Shown here piece after piece: positions 7,604 through 43,528 of a DNA stretch of 64,000 bases; the stretch's first letter is position 1, and every line of letters starts with the position of its first letter. This stretch comes from an uncultured Clostridium sp. (GTDB lineage Bacteria > Bacillota > Clostridia > TANB77 > CAG-508). The DNA is taken from assembly GCA_902496295.1 (NCBI GenBank), contig CABVAF010000003.1, forward strand, positions 97,859 through 161,858, written 5' to 3'. Below the pieces are notes generated by a model. That model saw only the letters and a program-made list of their open reading frames with translations, made no database searches and was not told the DNA's origin. Both the position numbers and the translations under genes were made by a program.

Positions 7604-8395
7604 ATGCCAGAACAAGTTTTAGCAGATTTAGTAAAAAAAGAGGAGATAGTAAGTGGTGTATACAAATTCAGCTTAAAGGCAGAAAATATAGTAAAACAAG
7701 CAAAGCCAGGAAACTTTGTGGAAATAAGAATAACAGACCAAACAGAACCTTTTTTAAGAAGACCAATAAGCATACATAATTTAGATAGAGAAAACGGAAT
7801 ATTAGAAATTATATTTCAAATAAAAGGAAAAGGAACAGAACTTTTAGCAAGAAAACAAGTAGGAGAAAAAGTAGATGTAATTGGACCATTAGGTTATGGA
7901 ACATTTAAGCTAGAAAATTATAAAAAAATTGCTGTAATAGGTGGGGGAATAGGGATATTTCCATTATACGAACTTCTTAAACAAGCTAAGGAAAATGGAG
8001 TAGAAACAGGAGTATATCTAAGCTTTAGAAATAAAGACTTGGTTATGTTAGAAAAAGAGTTTGGGGAGATCACATCAAACTTAAATATATCTACAGATGA
8101 CGGGTCATATAAAAATAAAGGATTTGCAATTGACTTTTTAAAGAAAGATATGGAAAAAGAAAAATACGAATGTATTTATGCATGTGGACCAACACCAATG
8201 CTAAGAGCTGTAAAGAATTATGCGGTAGAAAACAATATAAATTGTCAAGTATCACTAGAAGAAAAAATGGCATGTGGACTAGGTGTATGCTTAGGATGTG
8301 CAGTAAAAACAACAGCAAGCCCAAAAGAAGCACCAGAATATTTCCATGTTTGTAAAGCAGGTCCAGTATTTAATTGCAATGATGTTGAATTTTAA
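7604..8395 (+). CDS. pyrK: dihydroorotate dehydrogenase B electron-transfer subunit
   Basis: FAD/NAD-binding RRPISI motif and C-terminal 2Fe-2S cysteines CGLGVCLGC. ATG at 7604 has better SD spacing than 7598. Confidence 0.9.
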   Translation: MPEQVLADLVKKEEIVSGVYKFSLKAENIVKQAKPGNFVEIRITDQTEPFLRRPISIHNLDRENGILEIIFQIKGKGTELLARKQVGEKVDVIGPLGYGTFKLENYKKIAVIGGGIGIFPLYELLKQAKENGVETGVYLSFRNKDLVMLEKEFGEITSNLNISTDDGSYKNKGFAIDFLKKDMEKEKYECIYACGPTPMLRAVKNYAVENNINCQVSLEEKMACGLGVCLGCAVKTTASPKEAPEYFHVCKAGPVFNCNDVEF

Positions 8396-8441
8396 ATATT
8401 AAATTTATGCAAATAGAATTTATTGAAATGGAGGAAATAAA

Positions 8442-9350
8442 ATGAATACGAAAGTAAATTTCGCAGGAATAGAAATGAAAAATCCAGTAACTGTTGCATC
8501 AGGTACATTTGGATATGGTAGAGAATATAGTAATTTTTTTGACTTAGGAAAATTAGGCGCTGTAATAACAAAAGGAACATCGTTAAAACCTAAAAGTGGA
8601 AACAAACCTCCAAGAGTATATGAAACAGCAAGTGGAATGATAAATAGTATAGGGCTTCAAAATCCGGGAGTTGAATTTTTTGCAAATAACGACTTACCAT
8701 TTTTAAGGCAATTTGATACAAAAATAATAGTTAATGCATGTGGCAGTTCCATAGAAGAATATGTCGAATTATGTAAGATTTTAAATAAACTAGACATAGA
8801 TGGAGTAGAACTAAATTTATCATGTCCTAACGTAAAAGAAGGATGTATGGCATTTGGTAATACTTATGAAGGAGTAAAAACTGTAACAAGTGCTGTAAGA
8901 AAAGTATTAGATAAACCTTTAATAGTAAAATTAACCCCTAATGTAACAGATATTGCAAGTATAGCAAAAGGTGTTGAAGATGGTGGAGCAGATGCAGTTT
9001 CTTTAATTAATACATTATTAGCTATGAAAATAGATATAAATACAAGAAAACCAGTTTTAGCTAATAATACAGGAGGACTATCTGGACCTGCCATAAAACC
9101 AGTCGCAGTAAGAATGGTATATCAAGTTTCTAAAGCAGTAAATATTCCTATAATGGGACTAGGTGGAATTATGTCAGGAGAAGATGCAATAGAATTTATG
9201 CTTGCAGGAGCAACTACAGTATCAATAGGAGCAGGAAATTTTGCAGACCCATATACAAGTATAAAAACAATAGAGGGAATAGAAAGTTACATGAAAAAAT
9301 ATAATATTGAAAATGTAACAGACATAGTTGGAAAAGTTGAAATGAATTAA
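8442..9350 (+). CDS. pyrD: dihydroorotate dehydrogenase B catalytic subunit
   Basis: NPVTVASGTFGYG, NLSCPNV and GGLSGPAIKP motifs. Confidence 0.95.
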   Translation: MNTKVNFAGIEMKNPVTVASGTFGYGREYSNFFDLGKLGAVITKGTSLKPKSGNKPPRVYETASGMINSIGLQNPGVEFFANNDLPFLRQFDTKIIVNACGSSIEEYVELCKILNKLDIDGVELNLSCPNVKEGCMAFGNTYEGVKTVTSAVRKVLDKPLIVKLTPNVTDIASIAKGVEDGGADAVSLINTLLAMKIDINTRKPVLANNTGGLSGPAIKPVAVRMVYQVSKAVNIPIMGLGGIMSGEDAIEFMLAGATTVSIGAGNFADPYTSIKTIEGIESYMKKYNIENVTDIVGKVEMN

Positions 9351-10818: not shown

Positions 10819-12069
10819 ATGCACGGAATAACGCTAATAGCACTAGTTGTAACAATTGTAGTTTTATTAATATTGGCAGGAATAACAATAAGCTTAGTAT
10901 TTAGTGAAAATGGAATAATAGCAAAGGCAAGAGAGGCAGCAGAAAAAACGAATCAAGCTACAATAAATGAGCAAGAAGAAATGAATAAAGTAGCAGATTA
11001 TATGAGTAATATGGTGAATGGAATTGGTGGAGGTACTACGCCAGAAGAAAATATAGACCCAGATACTGGTTGGAATTTAAGCAAAGTAAATAAAGTAACA
11101 AGTACAGACGGAGTGGTTGTGCCAGTACCAATAGGGTATACTGCATCAAGTGTAGCAACAGAAAATACAGTAGCAGATGGATTTGTAATATATGAAGGAG
11201 AAGAAGAGGTAAACGATACTAATAAGAGTGCAGCACAGACAACGAGAAATCAATTTGTGTGGGTGCCAGTAGCAAATCCGAGTGAGATGTATGGAACAGA
11301 TAGTAATGGAAAGAAATGGGGAAAATTATATAGTTTCGCTTCAACTGGAATAACACCACTTAATTGGACAGAGCAAGATGGGGTAATGTCTGTAACAGAT
11401 GTAACAAGTAATCGAGAGCCAGATGTAGTAACTGGAAGTGATGGAATAGAATATGATGCAGTAAGTAGCAATTTACAACAAGCAGGGCTTGATGCAAGTG
11501 CAACTGCAGATACATTTCAGACACAGTTAGAGACAGAGTTTAACAATATGATAGATAGTGTAGAGAAGTATGGAGGATTTTATATAGGAAGATATGAAAC
11601 AGGTAATTTGTCTCAGACAGAAGCAGCAGTTATAAAAAATAACACAGATATAAATAATCAAACATGGTATACGATGTATAATAAGGCAAAAGGAGTAGCT
11701 GCGAATAGTAATGTAACTACAACAATGATATGGGGAAGTCAGTGGGATGCAACATTAAGATGGATGTATAATAGTGGAAATGAAGAAAAAAAGACATATA
11801 CTTATAATAGTACAGGAAAGGGAAATTATGGAAATGGAAATGGCTCACTACTGGCAACAGGTTCTAATGAAAGTTATGCAGTAAATAATATATATGATAT
11901 GGCAGGAAATTTATGGGATTGGACAATTGAAGCGGACCACCCCTTTTTCCGAGTTTGTCGTGGAGGTGGCTACGACGACTTTGCCAGCACTGATCCAGCT
12001 TCTTTTCGCAACCGCAACGAACCGACGCGCAGCGACTTCAGTGGCAGTAGGTTAGCTTTATATATGTAG
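10819..12069 (+). CDS. pilin-like N-terminal anchor fused to an FGE-sulfatase/C-type-lectin-fold domain; candidate DGR target protein
   Basis: N-terminus MHGITLIALVVTIVVLLILAGI resembles a prepilin-type segment. C-terminal motifs YDMAGNLWDWT and RVCRGGGY resemble the FGE-sulfatase family. Paralog of 40966-43464. Confidence 0.75.
   Translation: MHGITLIALVVTIVVLLILAGITISLVFSENGIIAKAREAAEKTNQATINEQEEMNKVADYMSNMVNGIGGGTTPEENIDPDTGWNLSKVNKVTSTDGVVVPVPIGYTASSVATENTVADGFVIYEGEEEVNDTNKSAAQTTRNQFVWVPVANPSEMYGTDSNGKKWGKLYSFASTGITPLNWTEQDGVMSVTDVTSNREPDVVTGSDGIEYDAVSSNLQQAGLDASATADTFQTQLETEFNNMIDSVEKYGGFYIGRYETGNLSQTEAAVIKNNTDINNQTWYTMYNKAKGVAANSNVTTTMIWGSQWDATLRWMYNSGNEEKKTYTYNSTGKGNYGNGNGSLLATGSNESYAVNNIYDMAGNLWDWTIEADHPFFRVCRGGGYDDFASTDPASFRNRNEPTRSDFSGSRLALYM
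11932..12051 (+). other. GC-rich, A-poor, NNC-codon-rich block inside the CDS; candidate DGR variable region
   Basis: Composition changes abruptly at GCGGACCAC and returns to AT-rich 18 nt before the stop. 15 of 31 codons from CGT GGA GGT onward end in C. Confidence 0.45.
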
Positions 12070-12087
12070 CCCTGTCCCCTAATTTTT
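12069..12087. repeat. degenerate fragment of the GGGACAGGTC repeat family
   Basis: GCCCTGTCCCCTAATTTT compared with the family arm GACCTGTCCC(C/T)AATTTC, immediately after the stop codon. Confidence 0.35.
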
Positions 12088-12120
12088 AGGATTAGAACAA
12101 TAGGTAACAAAGTCATTAAC

Positions 12121-12145
12121 AAGCGCCCTTTGGGGCGTTTTTATT
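12121..12145 (+). terminator. intrinsic terminator (GC stem, 4-nt loop)
   Basis: AAGCGCCC-TTTG-GGGCGTTT followed by TTATT. Confidence 0.65.
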
Positions 12146-12272
12146 ATGCTTTTTTAATTATATAATCATACAAAGCAGGCTGCAAATTTGGTAAAATCAT
12201 AAATATTTACTTGATTTTATGTGCTAAATGCTGTAATATAAAAATATAGTATATTGCAAAGGAGAAATTAAT

Positions 12273-12425
12273 ATGATAGTAGATGGTCAAGGAAATATTA
12301 TAGAAGAGAGAAGAAAAACAAGTAGAAGAAAAGCAGAAAATACAAAATTAAGCAAAGGTAATAGAAAAGAAGAGAGAAGGAAAAATAATCCAAATCAAGA
12401 AAAGAAAGCAAAAAAATCAAAATAG
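12273..12425 (+). CDS. 50-aa highly basic small protein
   Basis: Not in the track (<60 aa). SD AAAGGAG sits 8 nt before the ATG. MIVDGQGNIIEERRKTSRRKAENTK...KKAKKSK. Followed by a long hairpin. Confidence 0.35.
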   Translation: MIVDGQGNIIEERRKTSRRKAENTKLSKGNRKEERRKNNPNQEKKAKKSK

Positions 12426-12433
12426 TAAACTAT

Positions 12434-12491
12434 AAAAAGTACCTAATTTTAGACCTTATATTTAAGTTGTAGGCTAAAATAGGTACTTTTT
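12434..12491. terminator. bidirectional hairpin between convergent small genes
   Basis: AAAAAGTACCTAATTTTA / TAAAATAGGTACTTTTT, a 17-18 bp stem with one bulge and A/T runs on both sides. Confidence 0.6.
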
Positions 12492-12525
12492 ATTTGCATA
12501 CTAAATTATAAATTATTTTAAGCTA

Positions 12526-12645
12526 TTAGCAGCATCCTCCTCTGTTTCCACCGCAACAGCAGCAGATAAGGATTATTAATATTATTATCCATATGCAGTC
12601 ATCTCCAAAACCGAAGCCACATCCACATCCTCTATTTTCTTGCAT
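12526..12645 (-). CDS. 39-aa Cys/Gly-rich single-TM peptide (YjcZ-like tiny sporulation protein family?)
   Basis: MQENRGCGCGFGFGDDCIWIIILIILICCCCGGNRGGCC. SD GGGGGG upstream. Not in the track (<60 aa). Confidence 0.5.
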   Translation of the reverse strand: MQENRGCGCGFGFGDDCIWIIILIILICCCCGGNRGGCC

Positions 12646-12692
12646 CCAAATTCCCCCCTTTCAAAATCCATTAAGATTAGTTAATGTAATTC

Positions 12693-12812
12693 TTAGCAAC
12701 CACAACCATTGTTGTTATTGCAACAGCAGTTGTTGTTTCCGCCACAGCAGAAAAGTAGCAAGAATAGGATAATGAACCATAATAGTTCGCTGTTATTACC
12801 ACAACATCCCAT
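12693..12812 (-). CDS. 39-aa Cys/Asn-rich single-TM peptide, paralog of 12526-12645
   Basis: MGCCGNNSELLWFIILFLLLFCCGGNNNCCCNNNNGCGC. SD GGAGG sits 8 nt upstream. 47 nt from its paralog, so probably co-transcribed. Confidence 0.5.
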   Translation of the reverse strand: MGCCGNNSELLWFIILFLLLFCCGGNNNCCCNNNNGCGC

Positions 12813-12976
12813 TTTAATACCTCCTATAAGAACTAAAATTGTCTTGTTCTTTTGTATGGTATATATTATTCTAAAATGTTATAAAGTGTTACAGATTTAC
12901 TTTACAACAAATAAAAGTTAGTGATATAATTTGTACAAATTACGTAAGAGAAATGTAGAAAGGAATGGGTTAATAA

Positions 12977-15196
12977 ATGGGAAATATTGTACTATTAGAC
13001 GACCTAACAATAAATAAAATAGCAGCTGGTGAAGTTATAGAAAGACCTGCATCAGTAGTAAAAGAATTAGTGGAAAACTCAATAGATGCAGGGGCAACAG
13101 TAATAAATGTTGAAATAAAAAATGGAGGAATTTCTTATATACGTGTAAGTGACAACGGAAAAGGTTTCTTTCCAGATGACATGGAAATTGCATTTGAAAG
13201 ACATGCAACAAGTAAAATTAGACAAGCAACAGACTTAGAAATTGTAAAGACAATGGGGTTTAGAGGAGAGGCTTTAGCAAGTATTGCAGCGATAAGCAAA
13301 GTAGAACTTGTTTCAAGAAGAGAAGAAAGTGACATTGGTTATAAAATTTGCGTTGAGGGAGGAAATATAGCAGATAAGATAGAGGCAGGATGTCCAAAAG
13401 GTTCAACAATAACTATTACAGATTTGTTTTTTAATACACCTGTAAGATATAAATTCTTAAAAAAGGATTTTACAGAGGCAGGTTATATAGAAGATGTAAT
13501 AACAAGAATTGCGTTGTCTAATCCTCAAATAGCTTTAAAATTAATAAACACGGGAAAAACAGTTATACAAACTCCAGGCAATGGGGATAGAAAAGCTGTT
13601 ATATATAGTATCTTTGGAAAAGATATAGCTGAAAATATTTTAGAAGTAGATTATCAATATGACGATATAAAAGTGACGGGAGTTGTTGGCAAACCAATTA
13701 TTTCACGTTCTAATCGCGCTAATCAAATATTTTTTGTTAATAAAAGATATGTTAAAGATAAAGCGTTAACGAGTGCAGCAGAACAAGGTTTTAAAGGTAT
13801 GGTAACAATAGGCAAATATGGATTTGTAATATTGAATTTAGACATGAATCCTCAAAAAGTAGATGTTAACGTACATCCAGCAAAGTTAGAAGTAAGGTTT
13901 GAAGAGGAAAATAAGGTGTTTAAAGCAGTATACCATGCTATAAAAGAAACTTTATTAAAGAGTGACTTGGTTGGAAATCCAGATAGAACAGACGAATTAA
14001 AAGCAGAAACAGAGATGCAAACACAAATAGAAAAGCCAAAGTTAGTTTTTGAACATTCAAACTTTAAGCCAAAGTTTGAAACAAAACAAGTGGACAAACC
14101 TGTAGAAAGTGTTGAAGAGAAAACTGAAAAAGCAGACACTAAGAGTTTTAATTCATTGGATAATAATTTTTTAGCACAAATATATGCTGAAAGACAAGCA
14201 TTAAAAAATAATGAGAATGTAACTATTAGTGATAATAAACAAAATAAAGAAGAAAATGAAATTGTAAACCAAGAAGAAGATAAGGCAGTCGTAGATGATA
14301 TTAAAGAACTTGATAATATGCAAACAAAAGCTATAGACACAAATGAAGTAAACCAAAAATTTATAGAGAATATAAAGAAAATGGATAAGTTGCCAGAAAT
14401 TATGGCAACGGAAGATATTCCAGAAATTGATAAAAAGCTATCTTTTGACGAAATGTATGAGCGTACATTCGGAAGAAAAATAGAAGATGCTAAAGCACAA
14501 AAACTAAAAGAAGAGCAAGAAGAATACAAATCAAGTTTAGGAGAAGTTGCAAAAGATTTTGTAACACTTTCAAAAGCAGAGAATGTTTCAGTATTTAAAG
14601 AATTAGAGAAGAATGAAGCGCCTTTATATAAATTTATAGGAATTGCATTCTCAACTTATATAATAATACAAATGAAAGATGATATGTATATAATAGACCA
14701 GCATGCAGCACATGAAAGAATAATGTATGAGAGAGTTAAGGCAAATTACTATAATGATTCAGAAAAAGACTCACAATTAATGCTTTTGCCAGATATTATA
14801 ACTTTATCACATAAAGAAATGGATATAGCAAAAGAAAATATGGAGATGTTTAGAAAAGCTGGTTTTACATTAGAAGAGTTTGGTGAAAATACAATAAAAT
14901 TAACTGGTGTACCAGATATGTGCTTAGATTTAGATACAAAAGAACTATTTCTAGAGACTTTAGATGAAATAAATACTGTTGCAAGAACAGCAAAACAAGA
15001 AAAAGAAGAAAAGTTTATAGCTACTGTTGCTTGCAAGGCTGCGGTTAAAGCTAATATGGCTCTAACAAAGGAAGAAGTAGACAAGTTAATGGCGCAATTA
15101 CTTGTATTGCCAAATCCATTTACATGTCCACATGGAAGGCCTACAGCTATAAAAATGAGCAAAAACGATATAGAAAAGAAATTTTCAAGGAGATAA
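12977..15196 (+). CDS. mutL: DNA mismatch repair protein MutL
   Basis: N-terminal GHKL ATPase motifs (KIAAGEVIERPASVVKELVENSIDAG) and C-terminal DQHAAHERI endonuclease motif, with a long low-complexity linker. Confidence 0.95.
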   Translation: MGNIVLLDDLTINKIAAGEVIERPASVVKELVENSIDAGATVINVEIKNGGISYIRVSDNGKGFFPDDMEIAFERHATSKIRQATDLEIVKTMGFRGEALASIAAISKVELVSRREESDIGYKICVEGGNIADKIEAGCPKGSTITITDLFFNTPVRYKFLKKDFTEAGYIEDVITRIALSNPQIALKLINTGKTVIQTPGNGDRKAVIYSIFGKDIAENILEVDYQYDDIKVTGVVGKPIISRSNRANQIFFVNKRYVKDKALTSAAEQGFKGMVTIGKYGFVILNLDMNPQKVDVNVHPAKLEVRFEEENKVFKAVYHAIKETLLKSDLVGNPDRTDELKAETEMQTQIEKPKLVFEHSNFKPKFETKQVDKPVESVEEKTEKADTKSFNSLDNNFLAQIYAERQALKNNENVTISDNKQNKEENEIVNQEEDKAVVDDIKELDNMQTKAIDTNEVNQKFIENIKKMDKLPEIMATEDIPEIDKKLSFDEMYERTFGRKIEDAKAQKLKEEQEEYKSSLGEVAKDFVTLSKAENVSVFKELEKNEAPLYKFIGIAFSTYIIIQMKDDMYIIDQHAAHERIMYERVKANYYNDSEKDSQLMLLPDIITLSHKEMDIAKENMEMFRKAGFTLEEFGENTIKLTGVPDMCLDLDTKELFLETLDEINTVARTAKQEKEEKFIATVACKAAVKANMALTKEEVDKLMAQLLVLPNPFTCPHGRPTAIKMSKNDIEKKFSRR

Positions 15197-20545: not shown

Positions 20546-22933
20546 TTGGCTAAAAGAGGAAGAAGAAAAAAGAAAACAATAGATATAAATGTTGCTGTTG
20601 TAATATTAGTTATAATCAGTGTACTTTTATTTGTGTTAATATATACAAAATCTGGATATATTGGAGAACATTTAAGCCCAATGCTTGGCGGGATTATGGG
20701 ATTTATAAAATATATAATTCCAATTGGTACATTTTTAATTGCCATATATATGACACATAATGAAAAAGAATATATGTATGCAAAATTAATTCAGTATGCA
20801 GTTTTTTTAGTGTGCATAGCTACAATGCTTAGTGTGTTTCAGTTTTCTAGTGGGAATTTAAATGCAGGCAAAGAATTTAGTAGCGTTATGCAAACTGCAT
20901 ATGAGTTAGGTACAAGCGATATAGGCGGAGGAGTTATAGGAAGTGCTGTTGCTATGCCACTTATTAATTTGCTTGGTACAACAGGTGCAGTTATATTAGT
21001 AATAGGAATTGCAGTTGTTCTATTTGTGTTTATGTTTGGAGTAAGACCTGCTGAAATGATTAGCAACTTCTTAGATGCACTAGATGAAAGGAAAGAACTA
21101 AGAAAGCAAGAGAGAGTTTCTAGAAGAGAATTAGCAAGACAAAATAGAATGAAAATAGAACCTGAAAAAGTACAATTATCACATGAAGAAGAACAACCAC
21201 ATAAAGAAACTAGAAGAGAACGTAAATTAAGAGAAAAAGAAGAAGCAAAGAGAAAAGCATTAGAATTGGATGACCAAATTACTATTAATCTAAATAATGA
21301 AAATACATCTAAGATAGAAGAAAAGCCTAAAAAGTATAATCATGACAAAGATGATTTATCTTATTTAGGAGAAGAAAAGTTGTTTAAACAAGAAGAAGAG
21401 CAAAAAGAAAGCAAAACTAAAGAAGTTTTACAACTTGAACATGCTGTTACAGTAGAAGATAAAGACTATAAATTTCCACCAATAACTTTATTAAGCCAAG
21501 GTGACGCAAAAGAAATAAAAGGTGGTAAGAAAGCCGTTACAGAAACTGCAAGCAGATTGCAAAAGACTTTATATAGTTTTGGAGTATCTGCAAAAGTAGA
21601 GAATGTTTCAGTAGGACCTGCTATAACAAGGTATGAACTTAAACCAGCAGAAGGAGTTAGAGTAAGTAAAATTGCAAATTTAGCAGATGATATTGCATTA
21701 AATTTAGCAGCAGAAAGTATAAGAATAGAGGCTCCTATACCAGGAAAACAAGCTGTTGGAATAGAGATACCAAATGTAGAAAATGAAGTTGTACATTTAA
21801 GAGATATAATTTCTTCAGATGCATTCCAAGGACATAAGTCTAAACTTGCATTTGCATTAGGAAAAGACGTTGCTGGAAAAGAAGTTGTAGCTGATATTGC
21901 TAAGATGCCACACGTTTTAATTGCAGGTGCTACAGGTTCGGGTAAGAGTGTTTGTATAAATACTTTAATTGCGAGCATAATATATAAAGCAAAACCAAGT
22001 GAAGTAAAGCTACTTATGGTAGACCCAAAAGTAGTAGAACTTTCTGTATATAATGGAATACCACATCTTTTAATACCAGTAGTAACAGATCCTAAAAAAG
22101 CAGCAGGAGCACTTGCATGGGCAGTTCAAGAAATGATAAATAGATATAATTTGTTTGCTAAAAAAGGTGTTAGAGATATAAAAGGTTATAATGAAGCAGT
22201 AGAGAAAGAGGGAGAGACCGGAAAACTTCCACAAATAGTAATAATTATAGACGAGCTTTCAGACTTAATGATGGCATCTCCTAAAGAAGTAGAGGACTCA
22301 ATATGTAGATTAGCACAAATGGCAAGAGCTGCAGGAATGCATTTAGTAATTGCAACACAAAGACCATCTGTAGATGTTATTACAGGTGTAATTAAAGCAA
22401 ACATTCCTTCAAGAATATCATTTGCAGTATCTTCACAAGTCGATTCAAGAACTATATTAGATATGGTAGGTGCAGAAAAGCTATTAGGAAAAGGTGATAT
22501 GTTATTTTATCCATCAGGAGCACCAAAGCCAACAAGAATTCAAGGTGCATTCGTTTCAGATAAAGAAGTAGAAAAGCTAGTAGAGTTCTTAAAATCTCAA
22601 GGAGAAGTAACATACGATGATGAAATATTAGAACAAATAGAAAACTCAGATAAAACAGATAAAGAAATAGCAGAAGAAGATGACAAGCAAACAACGGACC
22701 CACTTCTATTAGAAGCAATAGATACAGTAGTAGAAACAGGTCAAGCGTCGACATCATTTATACAAAGAAGATTTAAAGTTGGTTATGCTAGAGCAGGAAG
22801 AATAATAGATCAGATGGAAGAAAGAGGAATAATATCAGGTTACCAAGGCAGTAAACCAAGAGAAGTTTTAATGAGCAAGGAAAGATGGCAAGAACTAAAA
22901 ATGACTAAGCTAGAAAACGACGATGGAAATTAG
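20546..22933 (+). CDS. ftsK: DNA translocase FtsK/SpoIIIE
   Basis: N-terminal TM segments, Walker A GATGSGKS, ATQRPSVDVITG, and a C-terminal gamma winged-helix. TTG start after GGGGAGG. The stop codon lies inside the repeat element. Confidence 0.93.
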   Translation: MAKRGRRKKKTIDINVAVVILVIISVLLFVLIYTKSGYIGEHLSPMLGGIMGFIKYIIPIGTFLIAIYMTHNEKEYMYAKLIQYAVFLVCIATMLSVFQFSSGNLNAGKEFSSVMQTAYELGTSDIGGGVIGSAVAMPLINLLGTTGAVILVIGIAVVLFVFMFGVRPAEMISNFLDALDERKELRKQERVSRRELARQNRMKIEPEKVQLSHEEEQPHKETRRERKLREKEEAKRKALELDDQITINLNNENTSKIEEKPKKYNHDKDDLSYLGEEKLFKQEEEQKESKTKEVLQLEHAVTVEDKDYKFPPITLLSQGDAKEIKGGKKAVTETASRLQKTLYSFGVSAKVENVSVGPAITRYELKPAEGVRVSKIANLADDIALNLAAESIRIEAPIPGKQAVGIEIPNVENEVVHLRDIISSDAFQGHKSKLAFALGKDVAGKEVVADIAKMPHVLIAGATGSGKSVCINTLIASIIYKAKPSEVKLLMVDPKVVELSVYNGIPHLLIPVVTDPKKAAGALAWAVQEMINRYNLFAKKGVRDIKGYNEAVEKEGETGKLPQIVIIIDELSDLMMASPKEVEDSICRLAQMARAAGMHLVIATQRPSVDVITGVIKANIPSRISFAVSSQVDSRTILDMVGAEKLLGKGDMLFYPSGAPKPTRIQGAFVSDKEVEKLVEFLKSQGEVTYDDEILEQIENSDKTDKEIAEEDDKQTTDPLLLEAIDTVVETGQASTSFIQRRFKVGYARAGRIIDQMEERGIISGYQGSKPREVLMSKERWQELKMTKLENDDGN

Positions 22934-23018
22934 AGACAGGTCCCAATTTCCAAAAGTCAGAAATTTGGACCTGTCCCTAATTTCTGAAACTCAGAAAAAA
23001 TGACCTGTCCCCAATTTC
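22926..23018. repeat. cluster of GGGACAGGTC-family palindromic units (REP/REPIN-like)
   Basis: One palindromic unit GAAATTAGAGACAGGTCCCAATTTC, plus a 51-nt segment (22968-23018) that differs at one base from the right end of the transposase unit (29341-29391). Confidence 0.85.
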
Positions 23019-23036
23019 GAGAAAGGATTTCAAAAG

Positions 23037-26294: not shown

Positions 26295-28253
26295 ATGAGA
26301 ACAAAATATTATAATGATGCTTTTATAGGAAACAAAGATATTTTAGCTACATATAGCAAAAAAGGAGAATTATTAAGGCTATATTATCCAAATCCGGACT
26401 TTAGACAGTTTATAGATTTTTTTGGAACAGGAATAAAGGTTAATGATTCAGGAATGATTTATCTACATGAAGATATAAACAATAAATATAGCCAATATTA
26501 TGATGAAGATACAAATATACTAAATACGGAAATAGAGAATTTATATTATAGACTAAAAATAAAGCAAACAGATTACACATCAATAAAGAAAGATGTTATT
26601 ATAAAACAGTATGTATTTGAAAATAATAATAGTATAAATTTAGACATAAATTTTTTAGTACATTCAAAACTAATTTACGAGGAGAATAATGCAGTTGGTT
26701 CTCAAATAAAAAATAATGCACTAATTCAATATTGCCATGATTATGCACTTGGAATTTTTTCTAAAGAAAACATATATAGTCATCAATTAAATGATGTTGC
26801 AAATAATATACAAAGTGGAGTAATACAAGATAAAGACTATATTGGAATGGCAGCAGACTCAGCTGTTAGTTATGATATTGGAATAATAAAGCCTGGAGAA
26901 AAAAGAGAATTTGTATTATTTATAGTTCCAACTCAAGGAATAGCTGAAGGAGATAATCAATTATTACTAGATAAAATAGATGAAGTAAGGAAAATAGACT
27001 TAAAAGCAGAAAAGCAAAATGTAGCTAAATATTGGAAAAAGTTTGTAAAAGACCATTATAAATTAGGAGAAAAATATCAAATCACAAATAAAAATTATCA
27101 AGGATATTTAGAAAAGTTAAATAAAATATATAAAAGAAGTATACTACTTTTTCCATTGCTTATGGATGAGACAACTGGTGGAATAGTTGCTTCAGCAGAA
27201 GTAGATGAGGAAAAGAGCCAATCTGGAAGATATGCATATTGTTGGCCAAGAGATGCAGTTTTTATTTGTTCAGCACTTGACAAAATAGGGATGACAAAAG
27301 AAGTAGAAAAGTTTTATAAAGTATTTTGTAAAAATACACAAAGCAAAAGTGGAATGTGGGAACAAAGATTTTATACAGATGGAAAGCTTGCGCCTTGTTG
27401 GGGATATCAAATAGATGAAACTGCTAGTGTAATATATGGTGTTTACGAACACTACAAAGTAACTAAAGAAGGAAAATTTATAAAAGATACATTTAAAATG
27501 TGTGACAAAGCAGTAAGATTTCTAGAAAGATATATGGATAATATATTAGGAACAAAAGATGATAGCGATGTTGTAAAAAAAGAAATTGAAGAAACGTATC
27601 ATACAGAAGATAGAGAAAAACTACCAGTAAGCTATGACTTATGGGAAATGAATGAAGGTGTTCATCTATATTCTTTAGCAAGCATAAATGCAGCATATAA
27701 TGCTATGCTTAAAATATATGAAATAATGGAGCCAGAGTATAAAGAAAACAGACTAAAACTTGAGAATATACATAAAAATGTAATTCGCATAAAGAAACAA
27801 TTAGAAGTTATGCAAAAGTATGTAAGTAAAAACTTATATAATGAAAAAACAAAAACATTAAAAAGAAATACAGAAGATGAGAAAACAGACATAAGTATTT
27901 TAGGAAGTGTATATCCTTTTGAAATGTTTGGGCCAAAAGAAAAGAAAGTATTAAATACTATAGAGAAAATAAACTTAACACTACGTACATATACAGGAGG
28001 ATATTTACGTTTTGAACAAGATAGTTATCGTGGAGGAAAAAATCCATGGCCAATATCAACACTATGGATGTCGATGTACTATCAAAAAGCAGGAGAGGCA
28101 AAAAAAGCAAAAGAATGTCTAGAATTTGTTATAAAGAGTTGTAATGAACATGGATTACTTGGAGAACAAGTAGACAACCAAACATTACAGCCAAACTGGG
28201 TAGTAGGCCTAGGCTGGTCTCATGCAATGTTTATTCTATCACTTGGAAATTAG
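26295..28253 (+). CDS. glycoside hydrolase family 15 (glucoamylase-like)
   Basis: YCWPRDAVF, DLWE and PISTLWMSMYY motifs typical of bacterial GH15. The stop codon lies inside the repeat element. Confidence 0.75.
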   Translation: MRTKYYNDAFIGNKDILATYSKKGELLRLYYPNPDFRQFIDFFGTGIKVNDSGMIYLHEDINNKYSQYYDEDTNILNTEIENLYYRLKIKQTDYTSIKKDVIIKQYVFENNNSINLDINFLVHSKLIYEENNAVGSQIKNNALIQYCHDYALGIFSKENIYSHQLNDVANNIQSGVIQDKDYIGMAADSAVSYDIGIIKPGEKREFVLFIVPTQGIAEGDNQLLLDKIDEVRKIDLKAEKQNVAKYWKKFVKDHYKLGEKYQITNKNYQGYLEKLNKIYKRSILLFPLLMDETTGGIVASAEVDEEKSQSGRYAYCWPRDAVFICSALDKIGMTKEVEKFYKVFCKNTQSKSGMWEQRFYTDGKLAPCWGYQIDETASVIYGVYEHYKVTKEGKFIKDTFKMCDKAVRFLERYMDNILGTKDDSDVVKKEIEETYHTEDREKLPVSYDLWEMNEGVHLYSLASINAAYNAMLKIYEIMEPEYKENRLKLENIHKNVIRIKKQLEVMQKYVSKNLYNEKTKTLKRNTEDEKTDISILGSVYPFEMFGPKEKKVLNTIEKINLTLRTYTGGYLRFEQDSYRGGKNPWPISTLWMSMYYQKAGEAKKAKECLEFVIKSCNEHGLLGEQVDNQTLQPNWVVGLGWSHAMFILSLGN

Positions 28254-28296
28254 GGACAGGTCATTTTTTCTGAATTTCAGAAATTAGGGACAGGTC
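28246..28296 (+). repeat. left terminal REP doublet
   Basis: GAAATTAGGGACAGGTCATTTTTTCTGAATTTCAGAAATTAGGGACAGGTC. Confidence 0.9.
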
Positions 28297-28432
28297 AACA
28301 TGTCCTAAAAAGCAAAAGTATTTTATAAAAATAAGATTTAAAAAGGTGATAATTTTAGTTTATAAGGGGGCAAATTATCATAATGCTATATTTTATAGTG
28401 TTATGGGAGTTTGCTTTTTTTAAATAATTAAG

Positions 28433-29340: not shown

Positions 29341-29391
29341 GACCTGTCCCTAATTTCTGAAATTCAGAAAAAATGACCTGTCCCCAATTTC
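29341..29391 (-). repeat. right terminal REP doublet (inverted)
   Basis: GACCTGTCCCTAATTTCTGAAATTCAGAAAAAATGACCTGTCCCCAATTTC. Confidence 0.9.
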
Positions 29392-29404
29392 TAAGGAGGA
29401 GAAA

Positions 29405-33504: not shown

Positions 33505-35668
<2,164 letters not shown>

Positions 35669-35672
35669 TAAG

Positions 35673-35837
35673 TTATCTAAATATAGTTAAAACAGTAGGT
35701 GAAATTAAGCATATTATAGATATAATTATCATACTTATTCCTGCAACTTTATTCTTGTTTTCTCTTATTTCATATATACCATAAATAAATAGTCTTAAGA
35801 AAATGTAAAGAGATAGTAACAAAATTAATATTAGCAT
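35673..35837 (-). CDS. 54-aa two-TM small membrane protein
   Basis: Not in the track. SD GGAGGA sits 5 nt before the ATG. MLILILLLSLYIFLRLFIYGIYEIRENKNKVAGISMIIISIICLISPTVLTIFR. 14 nt downstream of the Ger C-subunit gene. Confidence 0.4.
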   Translation of the reverse strand: MLILILLLSLYIFLRLFIYGIYEIRENKNKVAGISMIIISIICLISPTVLTIFR

Positions 35838-40965: not shown

Positions 40966-43464
40966 ATGAGCAATAAAGGTATAACATTAATATCATTAGT
41001 AGTTACTATAATTGTATTGTTAATACTAGCAGGAATAACAATAGGAACAGTATTTAATGATAATGGAATAATAAAAAAAGCACAAGAAGCGGCAAATGCA
41101 ACAGAAGAAGCTGCAAAAAATGACCAGGAAGCAATAAATGGCTTACTAGGAGAAATGGACAGTGTAATAAATGGAATAGGTGGAGGAAATGTACCAACAA
41201 TAGGAAGCATAAATGGAAATATAACATGGAGCACAGGGTCAGCAACTCTAGAGTTAACAACAAATGCAGAAGGAGTAATAATACAATATAGAAAAAATAA
41301 CGATTCTAATTGGACAGATTATACATCACCAGTACCAAGTCTGTTACATGGAGATAAGGTATATGCAAGAGGCGTGAAAGATGGAGAAACTGTAATAAGT
41401 GAAAAAGAATTTAGTATATTAGATACAATACCACCAACAGTAACAATAGCAAGTTCAAGTAGTACAACAAATAGTATAAGTGCAACAGCGACAGCAACAG
41501 ATAACGAAGCAGGAATGGGCTCAAACCCACAATACACATTTTATATAAAGAAAACAGCAGAAGAAGATAGCGCATATGTACAAATAGCAAGTAGCACAAA
41601 TGCAAGTGTAACAAAAGGAGATTTAGAACAAAATACATCATATACAATAAAAGTAGAAGTAACAGATGTGGCAGGAAATAAAGGGCAAGCAACAAAGGAG
41701 ATAACAACAGGCAAAATAGCAGATGCAGGAGATGGACTAACAAATGGAGCAATAATAGCAAGTACACCAGTATGGAGTAATGGAACAGCAAGTACAACAT
41801 TATCAACAACATCAGGATTAACAATACAATATCAAGTAGGCGGAGTAGATGGAAGCTGGACAAATGGAACAAGTGTAACAGGTTTACACCATAGAGATAC
41901 AGTATTTGCAAGATTAACAGATGGCAAAAACTATGGAGGAGAAGCAAGTATAACAATATTAGATACAGTAAATCCACAAAATGCAAGTATAAGTTTGAGT
42001 GCTACAAGTACAAATACAGCAGGAAGTATAACAGCGACAGTAACACTAAATGATAACGAAAGTGGAGTAAATGTAACAGGAAGTAAATGGGTATATAATA
42101 CAAATTCAGGATATATAGGAACAACAGAGAGCAGTTATAACAATACATTTAGCAGCAATGGACAAAAATTAACTTTACAAACAACAGAAGCAGGAACATA
42201 TTATTTACATGTGTTAACAGTAGATAAAGCAGGAAATAAGAAAGAGACAATAAGTAATAGTATCACAGTAACAAAAGCATTAGTAGCAGATGGAAGCTAT
42301 AACGAAGAAAAAGGAGTAAATACACCAAACTTGGGGGATGGAATGACACCAATAAAATGGAATGGAAGCACATGGGTAGAAACAACAGGAAGTGATCCAG
42401 AATGGTATGATTATTCAGCAAAGAAGTGGGCAAATGCAACAACGAGCGATGGAAGTATGTGGGTATGGATACCAAGATATGCATATAGTATAACAAGTGG
42501 ATATCACCAAAGCGGAGCAAATTTAAATAGTACAACACCAGCAGAAGGAGCAGGAACAATAGAAGTAGAGTTCATGAAAGGAACAAGTAATGAGACAGCA
42601 ACAGGAAGAACAACCTTCCAGAATGCAAGTGGACAAGGAAATTGGAATATCCACCCAGCATTTACCTATGGAAGTACAGTAAGTGGAATATGGGTAGCAA
42701 AGTTTGAAGCAAGTAGTGTAGAAGGAAATAGTGATAGCAGAAAAGAAGACGATGTAACAACAAAAACAGTGCAAGTAAAACCAGGAGTAGCGAGCTGGAG
42801 ATATATAACAATAGGAAATATATATACAGTATGCTTAAATTATAATAGTGCGTTAAATAGCCATTTAATGAAGAATGATGAATGGGGAGCTTGTGCCTAT
42901 TTAAGCAAAAGTAAATATGGAAAAGGGACAGAAGAAGTGTGGATAAATAACTTTAGTAACTTTATCACAGGGTCAGCAGGAAATAGTGCAACAGCAAGTA
43001 TGAATACAGGAACGACAACTACTTATACAAGTGCACAAGGAGTAAAGGCGAGTACAACAGGAAATGTGTATGGAATATATGATATGAGCGGAGGAGCAGG
43101 GGAATATGTAGCAGCATATGTAAATAATGGAAATAGTAGTTTAAATAATGGTTCAAATTTAGTAAATGGAGAAGCGAAAACGAAGAATGTATATAGTGTA
43201 GGAAGTTCAGATAGTACAGCGAATAACTATAGTGCAAATGCGGGGGTGTATGGAGATGCAGTATGGGAGACATCAAATGGATACAGCAATAGTAGTGATT
43301 CATGGTACGCCGATCGCTCTGACATTCCTCACACGAGCAATCCTTTCTTCATACGCGGGGGCAATTTCAGCGATACTACGAATGCTGGCGTGTTCTATTT
43401 TAACTGCGACTATGGTAGCTGGAACAGCGTTGTTTCGTTCCGTCCGGTCTTGGTCACACTTTAG
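40966..43464 (+). CDS. large pilin-like-anchored surface protein: two tandem Ig-like modules plus an FGE-sulfatase/C-type-lectin-like domain; candidate DGR target
   Basis: MSNKGITLISLVVTIIVLLILAGI N-terminus. About 70 aa are paralogous to 10819-12069. Two module repeats of about 165 aa (...IQY...ILDT.P...DNE.G...AGNK). C-terminal YGIYDMSGGAGEY and PFFIRGGNF. Confidence 0.8.
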   Translation: MSNKGITLISLVVTIIVLLILAGITIGTVFNDNGIIKKAQEAANATEEAAKNDQEAINGLLGEMDSVINGIGGGNVPTIGSINGNITWSTGSATLELTTNAEGVIIQYRKNNDSNWTDYTSPVPSLLHGDKVYARGVKDGETVISEKEFSILDTIPPTVTIASSSSTTNSISATATATDNEAGMGSNPQYTFYIKKTAEEDSAYVQIASSTNASVTKGDLEQNTSYTIKVEVTDVAGNKGQATKEITTGKIADAGDGLTNGAIIASTPVWSNGTASTTLSTTSGLTIQYQVGGVDGSWTNGTSVTGLHHRDTVFARLTDGKNYGGEASITILDTVNPQNASISLSATSTNTAGSITATVTLNDNESGVNVTGSKWVYNTNSGYIGTTESSYNNTFSSNGQKLTLQTTEAGTYYLHVLTVDKAGNKKETISNSITVTKALVADGSYNEEKGVNTPNLGDGMTPIKWNGSTWVETTGSDPEWYDYSAKKWANATTSDGSMWVWIPRYAYSITSGYHQSGANLNSTTPAEGAGTIEVEFMKGTSNETATGRTTFQNASGQGNWNIHPAFTYGSTVSGIWVAKFEASSVEGNSDSRKEDDVTTKTVQVKPGVASWRYITIGNIYTVCLNYNSALNSHLMKNDEWGACAYLSKSKYGKGTEEVWINNFSNFITGSAGNSATASMNTGTTTTYTSAQGVKASTTGNVYGIYDMSGGAGEYVAAYVNNGNSSLNNGSNLVNGEAKTKNVYSVGSSDSTANNYSANAGVYGDAVWETSNGYSNSSDSWYADRSDIPHTSNPFFIRGGNFSDTTNAGVFYFNCDYGSWNSVVSFRPVLVTL

Positions 43465-43494
43465 GGTGACCACCCAATATACCCCGAAACGAAC
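43306..43494 (+). other. GC-rich, NNC-codon-rich block spanning the last ~53 codons and 30 nt past the stop; candidate DGR variable region
   Basis: Sharp composition switch at TACGCCGATCGC. 23 of 53 sense codons end in C. A 7-bp hairpin TGGTCAC/GTGACCA holds the TAG stop in its loop. Confidence 0.45.
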
Positions 43495-43528
43495 AAAAAG
43501 ATGGCATGTAAATATTTTAAGTAAAATT

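Follow-up and report, generated by a model that had tools for sequence, protein, structure and literature searches.

Why should a gene of an AT-rich gut bacterium end in a GC-rich block full of codons ending in C? The question is raised by the gene at 40966..43464 (+ strand) of the 64,000-nucleotide stretch analysed here (hereafter the window; contig CABVAF010000003.1 of an uncultured Clostridium sp.), which according to the open reading frame list and its translation encodes an 832-aa protein. An earlier note, made from the sequence alone, had proposed that the 3′ end of this gene is the variable region (VR) of a diversity-generating retroelement (DGR) whose other components lie elsewhere. 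We find that positions 43313-43461 are a genuine DGR-derived VR and that the gene is a remote target in a chromosomal DGR system. The host, a bacterium of the human gut, belongs to the Clostridia and is related to Clostridium sp. CAG:273. The most likely state of this VR is that it is no longer rewritten, that is, frozen (fossil or dormant), a reading which we regard as probable while leaving room for others.

The compositional switch is sharp. In 100-nt windows the GC content ranges from 0.29 to 0.42 along the gene and reaches 0.45-0.51 at 43250-43499, where the strongly positive AT skew of the gene is also lost. The switch to a GC-rich block that had been placed at 43306 was reproduced: the GC content of 43306-43494 is 0.503, against 0.355 for the remaining gene and 0.2965 for the 64-kb window. 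Only one other place in the window, about 11891-12090, reaches at least 50% GC over 189 nt. From 43306 onwards, 23 of the 52 sense codons end in C (the earlier count of 23 was correct, its total of 53 was not) compared to 53/780 (7%) upstream (Fisher p=2e-12). C is found at synonymous third positions of the block even within conserved codons. Over the 170 nt that precede the VR, the sequence is of the usual AT-rich kind and is specific to the orthologue group of the window gene. The NNC-rich, GC-rich and adenine-poor composition of the block is explained, as had been suggested, by its descent via DGR cDNA from a GC-rich template full of AAC and AAT codons. A compositional scar alone can thus reveal a DGR VR in raw sequence.

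Where, then, are the reverse transcriptase (RT) and the template repeat (TR)? Within the 64 kb, a second copy of the block 43306-43494 was found neither by blastn (word size 7) nor by repeat finding, and tblastn detected no homologues of RT, Avd or the MutS-like protein described below (best E>3), in agreement with what had been noted before. This apparent lack is a window-edge effect. An exact protein match identified the window with the ENA scaffold ZELL14-1_SAMEA2467039_METAG-scaffold_48 (197,236 bp), which is in reverse orientation and carries the identical 832-aa protein; one retrieved locus (L001) equals window positions 30966-53464 base for base. A complete DGR is present on this scaffold, 37-40 kb downstream of the VR and 16.5 kb beyond the end of the window. 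The sequence of the strain's own genome covered here comprises about 21 kb around this DGR and the 64-kb window. Of the two descriptions proposed for the target, remote or orphan, the first therefore holds and the second does not, as three TRs, an RT and an Avd share its contig.

The RT is a protein of 370 aa that matches RVT_1 (E 2.5e-16) and contains the IGNYTSQ and YMDD motifs. Avd clears the curated NCBIfam DGR-Avd model NF033474 with 81 bits (cut-off 80). The third gene of the operon encodes a 140-aa MutS_I-domain protein which matches the ‘MSL’ class of DGR accessory proteins (Wu et al. 2018, PMC5758913). The DGR is flanked by the housekeeping genes asd, dapA, dapB, spoIVA, greA, groES and groEL, and is therefore chromosomal and not prophage-borne.

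The target in cis, P0003, is a protein of 481 aa which is 76% identical to the window protein and is encoded at about 80.5-81.9 kb in window-equivalent coordinates. It is followed on the same strand by three tandem units of ~470 bp, each containing one distinct VR-like TR of ~150 nt rich in AAC and AAT. This array occupies positions 11560-13040 of the retrieved locus L005, which corresponds to about 82.0-83.5 kb. The three non-coding repeats (TR1, about 11597-11750; TR2, 12100-12251; TR3, 12570-12722, all on the P0003 strand) align to 43313-43461 with 74-82% identity, and it is this alignment which delimits the VR in the window. The TR units are convergent to the MutS-like/avd/RT operon, i.e. 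they lie on the opposite strand. In each unit the TR homology stops at ...GGTCGCACTT, and is followed by a spacer of ~100 nt (CGATACAACGAAAAATT...) which is kept between units and recurs in L050 and Clostridium sp. CAG:273, the two further assemblies included in the alignment. A TGATATAAT-like box precedes each TR unit, and these boxes suggest that every unit may have its own promoter; a promoter and terminator scan of the array gave no enrichment over shuffled sequences. Array composition differs elsewhere in the lineage. CAG:273 and a further related strain (L051) have two TR units each, TR sets vary among strains whose RTs are at least 90% identical, and in L051 (5705-7097) a DUF3800 gene and a ToxN-like toxin gene lie between the RT and the TRs.

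Is this DGR functional? The cis VR of P0003 differs from TR1 at 17 template adenines and at no other base. The same pattern is seen in the cis VR of the metagenome-assembled genome (MAG) Lapin-023 bin1 (L016) against the TR of the same locus (19 A / 0 non-A), and in the VR of the MAG BRZ_CS bin95 (L037) against the TR of that MAG (L032; 16 A / 0 non-A). Furthermore, a remote target, P0063, with no RT within 10 kb, differs from the CAG:273 TR by 19 A / 0 non-A mismatches. Judged from these mismatch spectra, the DGR works in this lineage. For a positive control of VR diversity, orthologues of the cis target P0003 were sought and none closer than 81% was present in the database, since contigs probably break at the TR array. 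The 404-aa P0063 group served instead: its 18 proteins carry 12 distinct VRs which differ at 13-18 of 50 positions, whereas outside the VR only 0-12 of 354 residues differ (97-100% identity).

The whole family shows the same signature. A word-indexed search with the C-terminal 395 aa of the window protein returned more than 6,000 homologues at E<=1e-3, and an exhaustive search at the same threshold gave 3,927 clusters at 50% identity. The last 54 residues follow the pattern SW.xD.SxFPxxxxPFFxRGGxxxxxxxAGVFxFxxxxGxxxxxxSFRPVLVAL, in which the x positions are mostly N, Y, S, D or G; the window protein ends in ...PFFIRGGNF...SFRPVLVTL. Across 110 distinct homologue tails of the same length, the mean entropy is 2.49 bits where the TR1 codon has an A at position 1 or 2 and 0.25 bits elsewhere (p=4.6e-9).

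These data bear on the simplest alternative, namely that the block is an ordinary conserved, GC-rich domain end shaped by amino-acid constraints (Gly, Arg, Pro, and Phe encoded by TTC) without any retroelement. PFF.RGG, AGVF.F and SFRPVL are indeed conserved in thousands of homologues and the window copy is invariant. This view would leave unexplained why non-coding repeats of 74-82% identity adjoin an RT and an Avd on the same contig, why hypervariability falls exactly at template-adenine positions, and why synonymous third positions turn to C even in conserved codons. We consider this explanation extremely improbable; the TRs found on this contig, the VR-TR mismatch spectra and the entropy test effectively refute it.

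Some VRs of the lineage have a composite appearance. The cis VR of L050 (7060-7230) fits its own TR (8290-8450) in the 3′ part only, and its 5′ part fits another TR type. P0076 and P0080 have a common 3′ half and different 5′ halves, and for P0080 and P0086 the reverse is true. Such mosaics suggest that homing covers only part of the repeat or draws on several TRs.

The 3′ end of the window VR carries the elements which homing would require. Its last 27 nt (43435..43461, + strand) form an invariant GC-rich end, TCGTTCCGTCCGGTCTTGGTC(A/G)CACTT, common to all TRs and resembling an initiation of mutagenic homing (IMH) site. The part TCGTTCCGTCCGGTCTTGGTC is the same in every VR and TR of the lineage examined, and at 43456 the window has A against G in all TRs. 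If Bordetella phage BPP-1 is a guide, homing would initiate at this end. The hairpin described by the earlier note is present just 3′ of the VR (43451..43473, + strand), with the arms TGGTCAC (43451-43457) and GTGACCA (43467-43473) and the TAG stop codon (43462-43464) in its loop, as expected for a DGR target site. Its 7-bp stem has an internal A.G mismatch, and its folding energy as DNA (dG -6.3 kcal/mol, z=-1.06 versus shuffles) is unexceptional; the hairpin is notable for its position and conservation and not for its stability. Hairpins fold at the equivalent spot in both other VR copies tested, and arm sequences are visible at most of the remaining VR copies. In the cis VR the hairpin reads GGTCGCAC-TTTA-GTGTGACC (z=-2.7). 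Hairpins follow most VRs and do not follow TRs, and the 3′ arm is restricted to VR ends.

Directly downstream (43474..43505, + strand) lies CCCAATATACCCCGAAACGAACAAAAAG, a degraded copy of a 3′ flank element recognised by comparison of the flanks of 19 VR loci. Its consensus, AAATATACCTCTAAAACrCACA, is kept downstream of the remote targets of this family. Two conserved sequence classes in fact follow the VR hairpins. The ‘remote’ type, AAATATACCTCTAAAACrCACAnAAAGGCAC..., of which the window carries the degraded version, was compared at L002, L006, L019, L020, L029, L030, L046 and L049 with the ‘cis’ type, CCTTGyACCTTGCCCTTTGTAAATCGGCA...AATGCAGATTAC, at L005, L037, L050, L051 and L061.

What does the VR diversify? 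The 832-aa protein consists of a pilin-like hydrophobic leader, Ig-like repeats and a C-terminal domain with a C-type-lectin/FGE fold. With the whole protein, Pfam and NCBIfam gave no significant domain, and Pfam FGE-sulfatase matched the C-terminal domain below threshold (E 0.002); the sequence search against the PDB was uninformative, and in a profile search the top match, the Thermus aquaticus variable protein TaqVP, reached only E 0.16. Structure prediction was more informative. The 395-aa C-terminal, putatively ligand-binding domain (42277..43461, + strand) was modelled by AlphaFold2 (AF2) with a mean pLDDT of 96.1 and a pTM of 0.95 from an alignment of representatives of 50%-identity clusters, which replaced a shallow alignment (all sequences about 70% identical) that had given a pLDDT of 37.9. 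Foldseek against the PDB returned TaqVP (5vf4, E 2e-9) as the best match, followed by human FGE (1y1h), Mtd (1yu3/1yu0) and TvpA (2y3c). The predicted fold agrees with the previous reading of the tail PFFIRGGNF...SFRPV as the end of an FGE/C-type-lectin domain. In this model the VR maps to the C-terminal end of the fold, the position anticipated for a DGR-type VR; the matches to TaqVP, Mtd, TvpA and FGE agree with this, as does a variability which tracks template adenines.

The N-terminal leader, MSNKGITLISLVVTIIVLLILAGITIGTV (40966..41052, + strand, from the translation), resembles that of pilins or pseudopilins. It reads KG-ITLISLVVTIIVLLILAGI, with Ser at +5 instead of the usual Glu. It has no N_methyl match at E<=0.1 and a weak GspG match (E 0.063), so that its sequence supports a pilin-like nature weakly. 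The leader of the paralogue P0003 matches Pfam N_methyl with E 2.8e-4 and 20.8 bits (cut-off 21.2), and IMG calls some family members ‘pseudopilin PulG’. Between leader and lectin domain lies a central Ig/Fn3-like repeat region (41203..42276, + strand, approximate boundaries), a putative spacer or stalk for which only sub-threshold Pfam matches were obtained (CHB_HEX_C, Big_3_3, Ig_Rha78A_N and Fn3-like). Most homologues (404-650 aa) do not have this region.

Is the VR in the window still rewritten? The differences from the TR expected of a DGR target, at adenines only, are found in the cis VR of the same contig and not in the window VR. Counted over the last 135 nt, the window VR shows 15 A / about 10 non-A mismatches to TR1, 17 A / 22 non-A to TR2 and 15 A / 22 non-A to TR3, all from its own genome. 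The best of 11 distinct TRs from related cassettes gives 18 A / 8 non-A. The proposal that ongoing overwriting maintains the block is thus at odds with about 10 non-adenine mismatches to the best TR of its own genome and at least 8 to any of the 11. Several of these non-A differences are silent, affecting the third base of invariant codons (ACG/ACT, GCT/GCC, TTT/TTC), and one VR codon is TGG, which cannot be reached by mutagenesis of AAC. The TR at L050:8425, from another strain, has exactly the states of the window, ACG AAT GCT ... TGG AAC AGC AAT GTT, and its 5′ half does not fit the window VR. The 5′ part of the window VR resembles TR1-type templates, and its 3′ part this ‘TGG-type’ TR. The best mosaic of two known TRs with one breakpoint still leaves 5-6 non-A mismatches.

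The search for a cognate TR, for which each position may hold the VR base or an A, was extended to public collections. This pattern had no match in 185,579 GTDB representative genomes, from which it follows that the species carrying the window VR is not among the GTDB representatives. JGI metagenomes returned only the window VR itself and no TR, and IMG/VR returned no match. The predicted template repeat differing at adenines only was accordingly absent from the matches in all three collections. With the RT as anchor, 15 related cassettes were retrieved, which added four TR variants, none of them cognate, and no TR compatible by adenine changes alone is present among the 65 fetched loci.

Comparison between samples points in the same direction. 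Orthologues of the window gene were recovered from eight further metagenome assemblies with different accessions, whose names suggest different cohorts. The eight aligned copies differ at 15 polymorphic sites over 2.7 kb. The VR core (43340-43434, + strand) is identical in all of them and in a ninth copy from JGI. Within the block only 43330, 43456, 43458 and 43467 vary, and 11 sites carrying single-nucleotide polymorphisms (SNPs) lie elsewhere in the gene. The earlier note had named invariance of the block across strains as grounds for abandoning its proposal, and a core identical in nine samples is what was observed; hypervariability of the VR between strains is found at the level of the family and not in the window VR. 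The SNPs at 43456, 43458 and 43467 fall in the hairpin; in three strains, 43467 T>C leaves A43456 without its pairing partner. A43456 might be taken for a new mutation inactivating the IMH, a notion that was rejected, as the ACACTTTAGGGTGACCAC end also occurs in the paralogue P0005.

Non-adenine differences from every sampled template together with identity in nine samples are the reasons for which we consider the window VR probably frozen. It was probably last written from TR variants which have since been lost from the array of the strain, and was then inherited vertically. Such frozen VRs are common in this target family. One family protein is identical on 208 contigs, and its VR (...DYSIGMITGAFCFGSSSGEKVGHY...) contains Met, Lys and Glu, residues which are not obtainable by adenine mutagenesis of AAY codons. 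The clusters P0140, P0027 and P0062 were considered as examples of VR diversity and proved to be further frozen VRs.

Several points weigh against a frozen VR. One orthologue (L007) differs from the window protein at four amino acids, of which two lie within the VR block, and both of these changes match TR bases: AAC at 43330 is found in TR3 and in other TR types, and G43456 in all TRs. The window VR retains the GC-rich 3′ element, the 7-bp hairpin and long stretches identical to TR1, so that homing to it may still be mechanistically feasible. The assembly of TR arrays is poor, with many contigs ending exactly at the TR anchor, and a cognate TR could therefore reside elsewhere in the genome. 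Consensus assemblies hide minority variants, and diversification at a low level or under certain conditions is possible. In addition, targets with as many as 11 non-A differences are admitted in published surveys (PMC5758913).

The rival explanation built on such points is that the gene is an active remote target, whose VR is still diversified by an unsampled fourth TR, located elsewhere in the genome or collapsed from the tandem array during assembly, or by TR1 with a low-fidelity, ‘non-canonical’ mutagenesis. The nine identical copies would then reflect selection for, or the recent spread of, one successful variant. The complete and apparently intact DGR 37-40 kb away on the same contig fits this explanation, as do the other remote targets of the family, which are adenine-clean and diversified between strains, and the preserved 3′ element and hairpin. 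The diagnostic ACG-AAT-GCT ... TGG-AAC-AGC ... GTT codons of the window do exist in a TR (L050), TR arrays differ between strains and are truncated in assemblies, and 23% of catalogued DGRs show non-A differences (PMC5758913). Yet no TR compatible by adenine changes alone was obtained from the three public collections or the 65 loci, and even the best mosaic leaves 5-6 non-A mismatches. Zero core variation in nine independent samples contrasts with 13-18 changes per VR in the P0063 orthologue group, and three strains carry the hairpin SNP 43467 T>C, by which A43456 loses its pairing. On balance we judge an active target unlikely.

A tenth sequence of the orthologue group introduces another possibility. 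In L014 (protein P0125; 2.9x coverage) the last 330 nt, from 43135 on, are swapped together with the flank for paralogue-like sequence with a different VR. As non-VR sequence and flank were replaced too, this replacement is not retrohoming; it is due either to recombination with a paralogue or to a chimeric assembly. Gene conversion or recombination with a paralogue could likewise have brought an already diversified 3′ end to the window gene, a copy on which the DGR itself would never have acted. Remote targets at different loci have conserved 3′ flanks, which implies that gene ends spread by duplication, and the paralogue P0005 shares the ACACTTTAGGGTGACCAC end with the window. The compositional switch, on the other hand, coincides with the start of TR homology (about 43313) and not with a boundary of paralogue recombination, and the 170 nt before the VR are AT-rich and specific to the orthologue group. 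The low coverage of L014 makes a chimera possible, and a converted end would still derive ultimately from DGR cDNA. We therefore rate this explanation as quite improbable.

How would a VR of this kind be written? Following the Bordetella and Treponema paradigms, the RT-Avd complex would copy the TR RNA, including the conserved spacer, with misincorporation opposite template adenines. The cDNA would then replace the VR, homing beginning at the GC-rich 3′ element and the hairpin around the stop codon. In this way some 24 AAY/ANY codons would be rewritten on the putative ligand-binding face of the C-type-lectin fold, which a pilin-like surface protein would carry, presumably displayed on a pilus. 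A more elaborate scheme may be proposed for the window VR: a single RT-Avd-MSL module would service several independently transcribed TR cassettes (each with its own -10-like box and the conserved spacer, and convergent to the RT operon), and partial homing would write mosaic VRs into dispersed pilin-like lectins. The window VR would then be a mosaic of a TR1-type 5′ part and a TGG-type 3′ part, fixed after turnover of the TR array. We offer this scheme tentatively and regard it as rather doubtful. If true, the window VR records the evolution of a TR array and the way in which DGR targets ‘retire’.

Among known systems, the DGR of Treponema denticola (TvpA, seven remote targets) offers the closest parallels in organisation. 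It is likewise chromosomal and not of phage origin, a single RT acts on a cis target as well as on dispersed paralogues of it, and the VR of TvpA, a surface protein, lies at the C-terminal end of a C-type-lectin/FGE fold; remote targets have been described (PMC5758913, PMC4891356). Unlike in Treponema, the window protein has a pilin-like leader instead of a lipoprotein signal, three tandem TR units are opposite in strand to MSL-avd-RT, and the window copy is adenine-clean against no TR. With Bordetella phage BPP-1 (mtd, avd, TR, brt) our system shares a mutagenesis that is specific for adenines and acts on AAC-rich template codons, a GC-rich element at the 3′ end of both VR and TR, a hairpin immediately downstream of the VR, Avd, and the fold of Mtd (1yu0/1yu3). 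In BPP-1 the DGR belongs to a phage, its only TR lies between avd and brt on one strand and its only target is adjacent, whereas the DGR described here is chromosomal and has multiple TRs in convergent orientation, an additional MutS-like gene and targets at least 37 kb away.

TaqVP, the best structural match (Foldseek prob 1.0), belongs to the DGR variable proteins and combines a C-type-lectin fold with a C-terminal VR. Its identity to the window domain is 16-17% (TM about 0.43-0.45); it has neither a pilin-like leader nor Ig repeats and comes from a different phylum. Finally, Legionella-type or ‘Lineage 4’ DGRs with MSL (PMC5758913) resemble the present system in having avd and a small MutS_I-domain gene beside the RT, a likeness of traits. 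Further Lineage 4 traits (PMC5758913) found here are the absence of phage association, multiple or remote targets and differences other than A-to-N.

Remote targets, C-type-lectin VRs, Avd, MSL and occasional non-A differences have already been documented (PMC5758913, PMC4891356). The main text of PMC5758913 yielded no description of a tandem TR array, and in the literature searched ‘multiple TRs’ referred only to several strains in one host or to engineered systems. No paper connecting DGRs with pseudopilins or with CAG-273 turned up in our literature search. Less familiar features, which lie outside the block 43306-43494, are the tandem array of three TRs convergent to the RT operon, the apparently mosaic VRs, the two classes of 3′ flank and the size of the family in gut Clostridia, and these may support a moderate novelty. 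The window provides a concrete case of a target which has probably ceased to be diversified while the DGR, apparently intact, and active sister targets are still present. This bears on how activity is deduced in surveys counting any TR-like repeat as a target. The very large family of pilin-like lectins in human-gut Clostridia, with its tandem, multi-copy TR arrays and seemingly mosaic VRs, may merit separate attention.

The window contains a second pilin-like gene (10819-12069, + strand, 416 aa) with a near-consensus family leader, MHGITLIALVVTIVVLLILAGITISLVFSENG; its leader DNA at 10825-11033 is 71% identical to that of the 832-aa gene. This gene likewise has a GC-rich end (especially 11925-12060), which is the second place with at least 50% GC over 189 nt mentioned above. 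Its tail, ...GNLWDWTIEADHPFFRVCRGGGYDDFASTDPASFRNRNEPTRSDFSGSRLALYM*, contains a different lectin-type motif, has no Pfam match and matches neither the window VR block nor other parts of the window. The GC-rich end may be the VR of a second type of DGR target. Furthermore, short intergenic repeats in direct and inverted orientation occur at 22922-23027, 28242-28318, 29341-29400 and 35539-35677. They belong to a family of GACCTGTCCC / GGGACAGGTC with AATTTCTGAAA spacers, and a related CCCTGTCCCCTAATTTTTAGG lies directly after the stop codon of the 416-aa gene (12070-12090).

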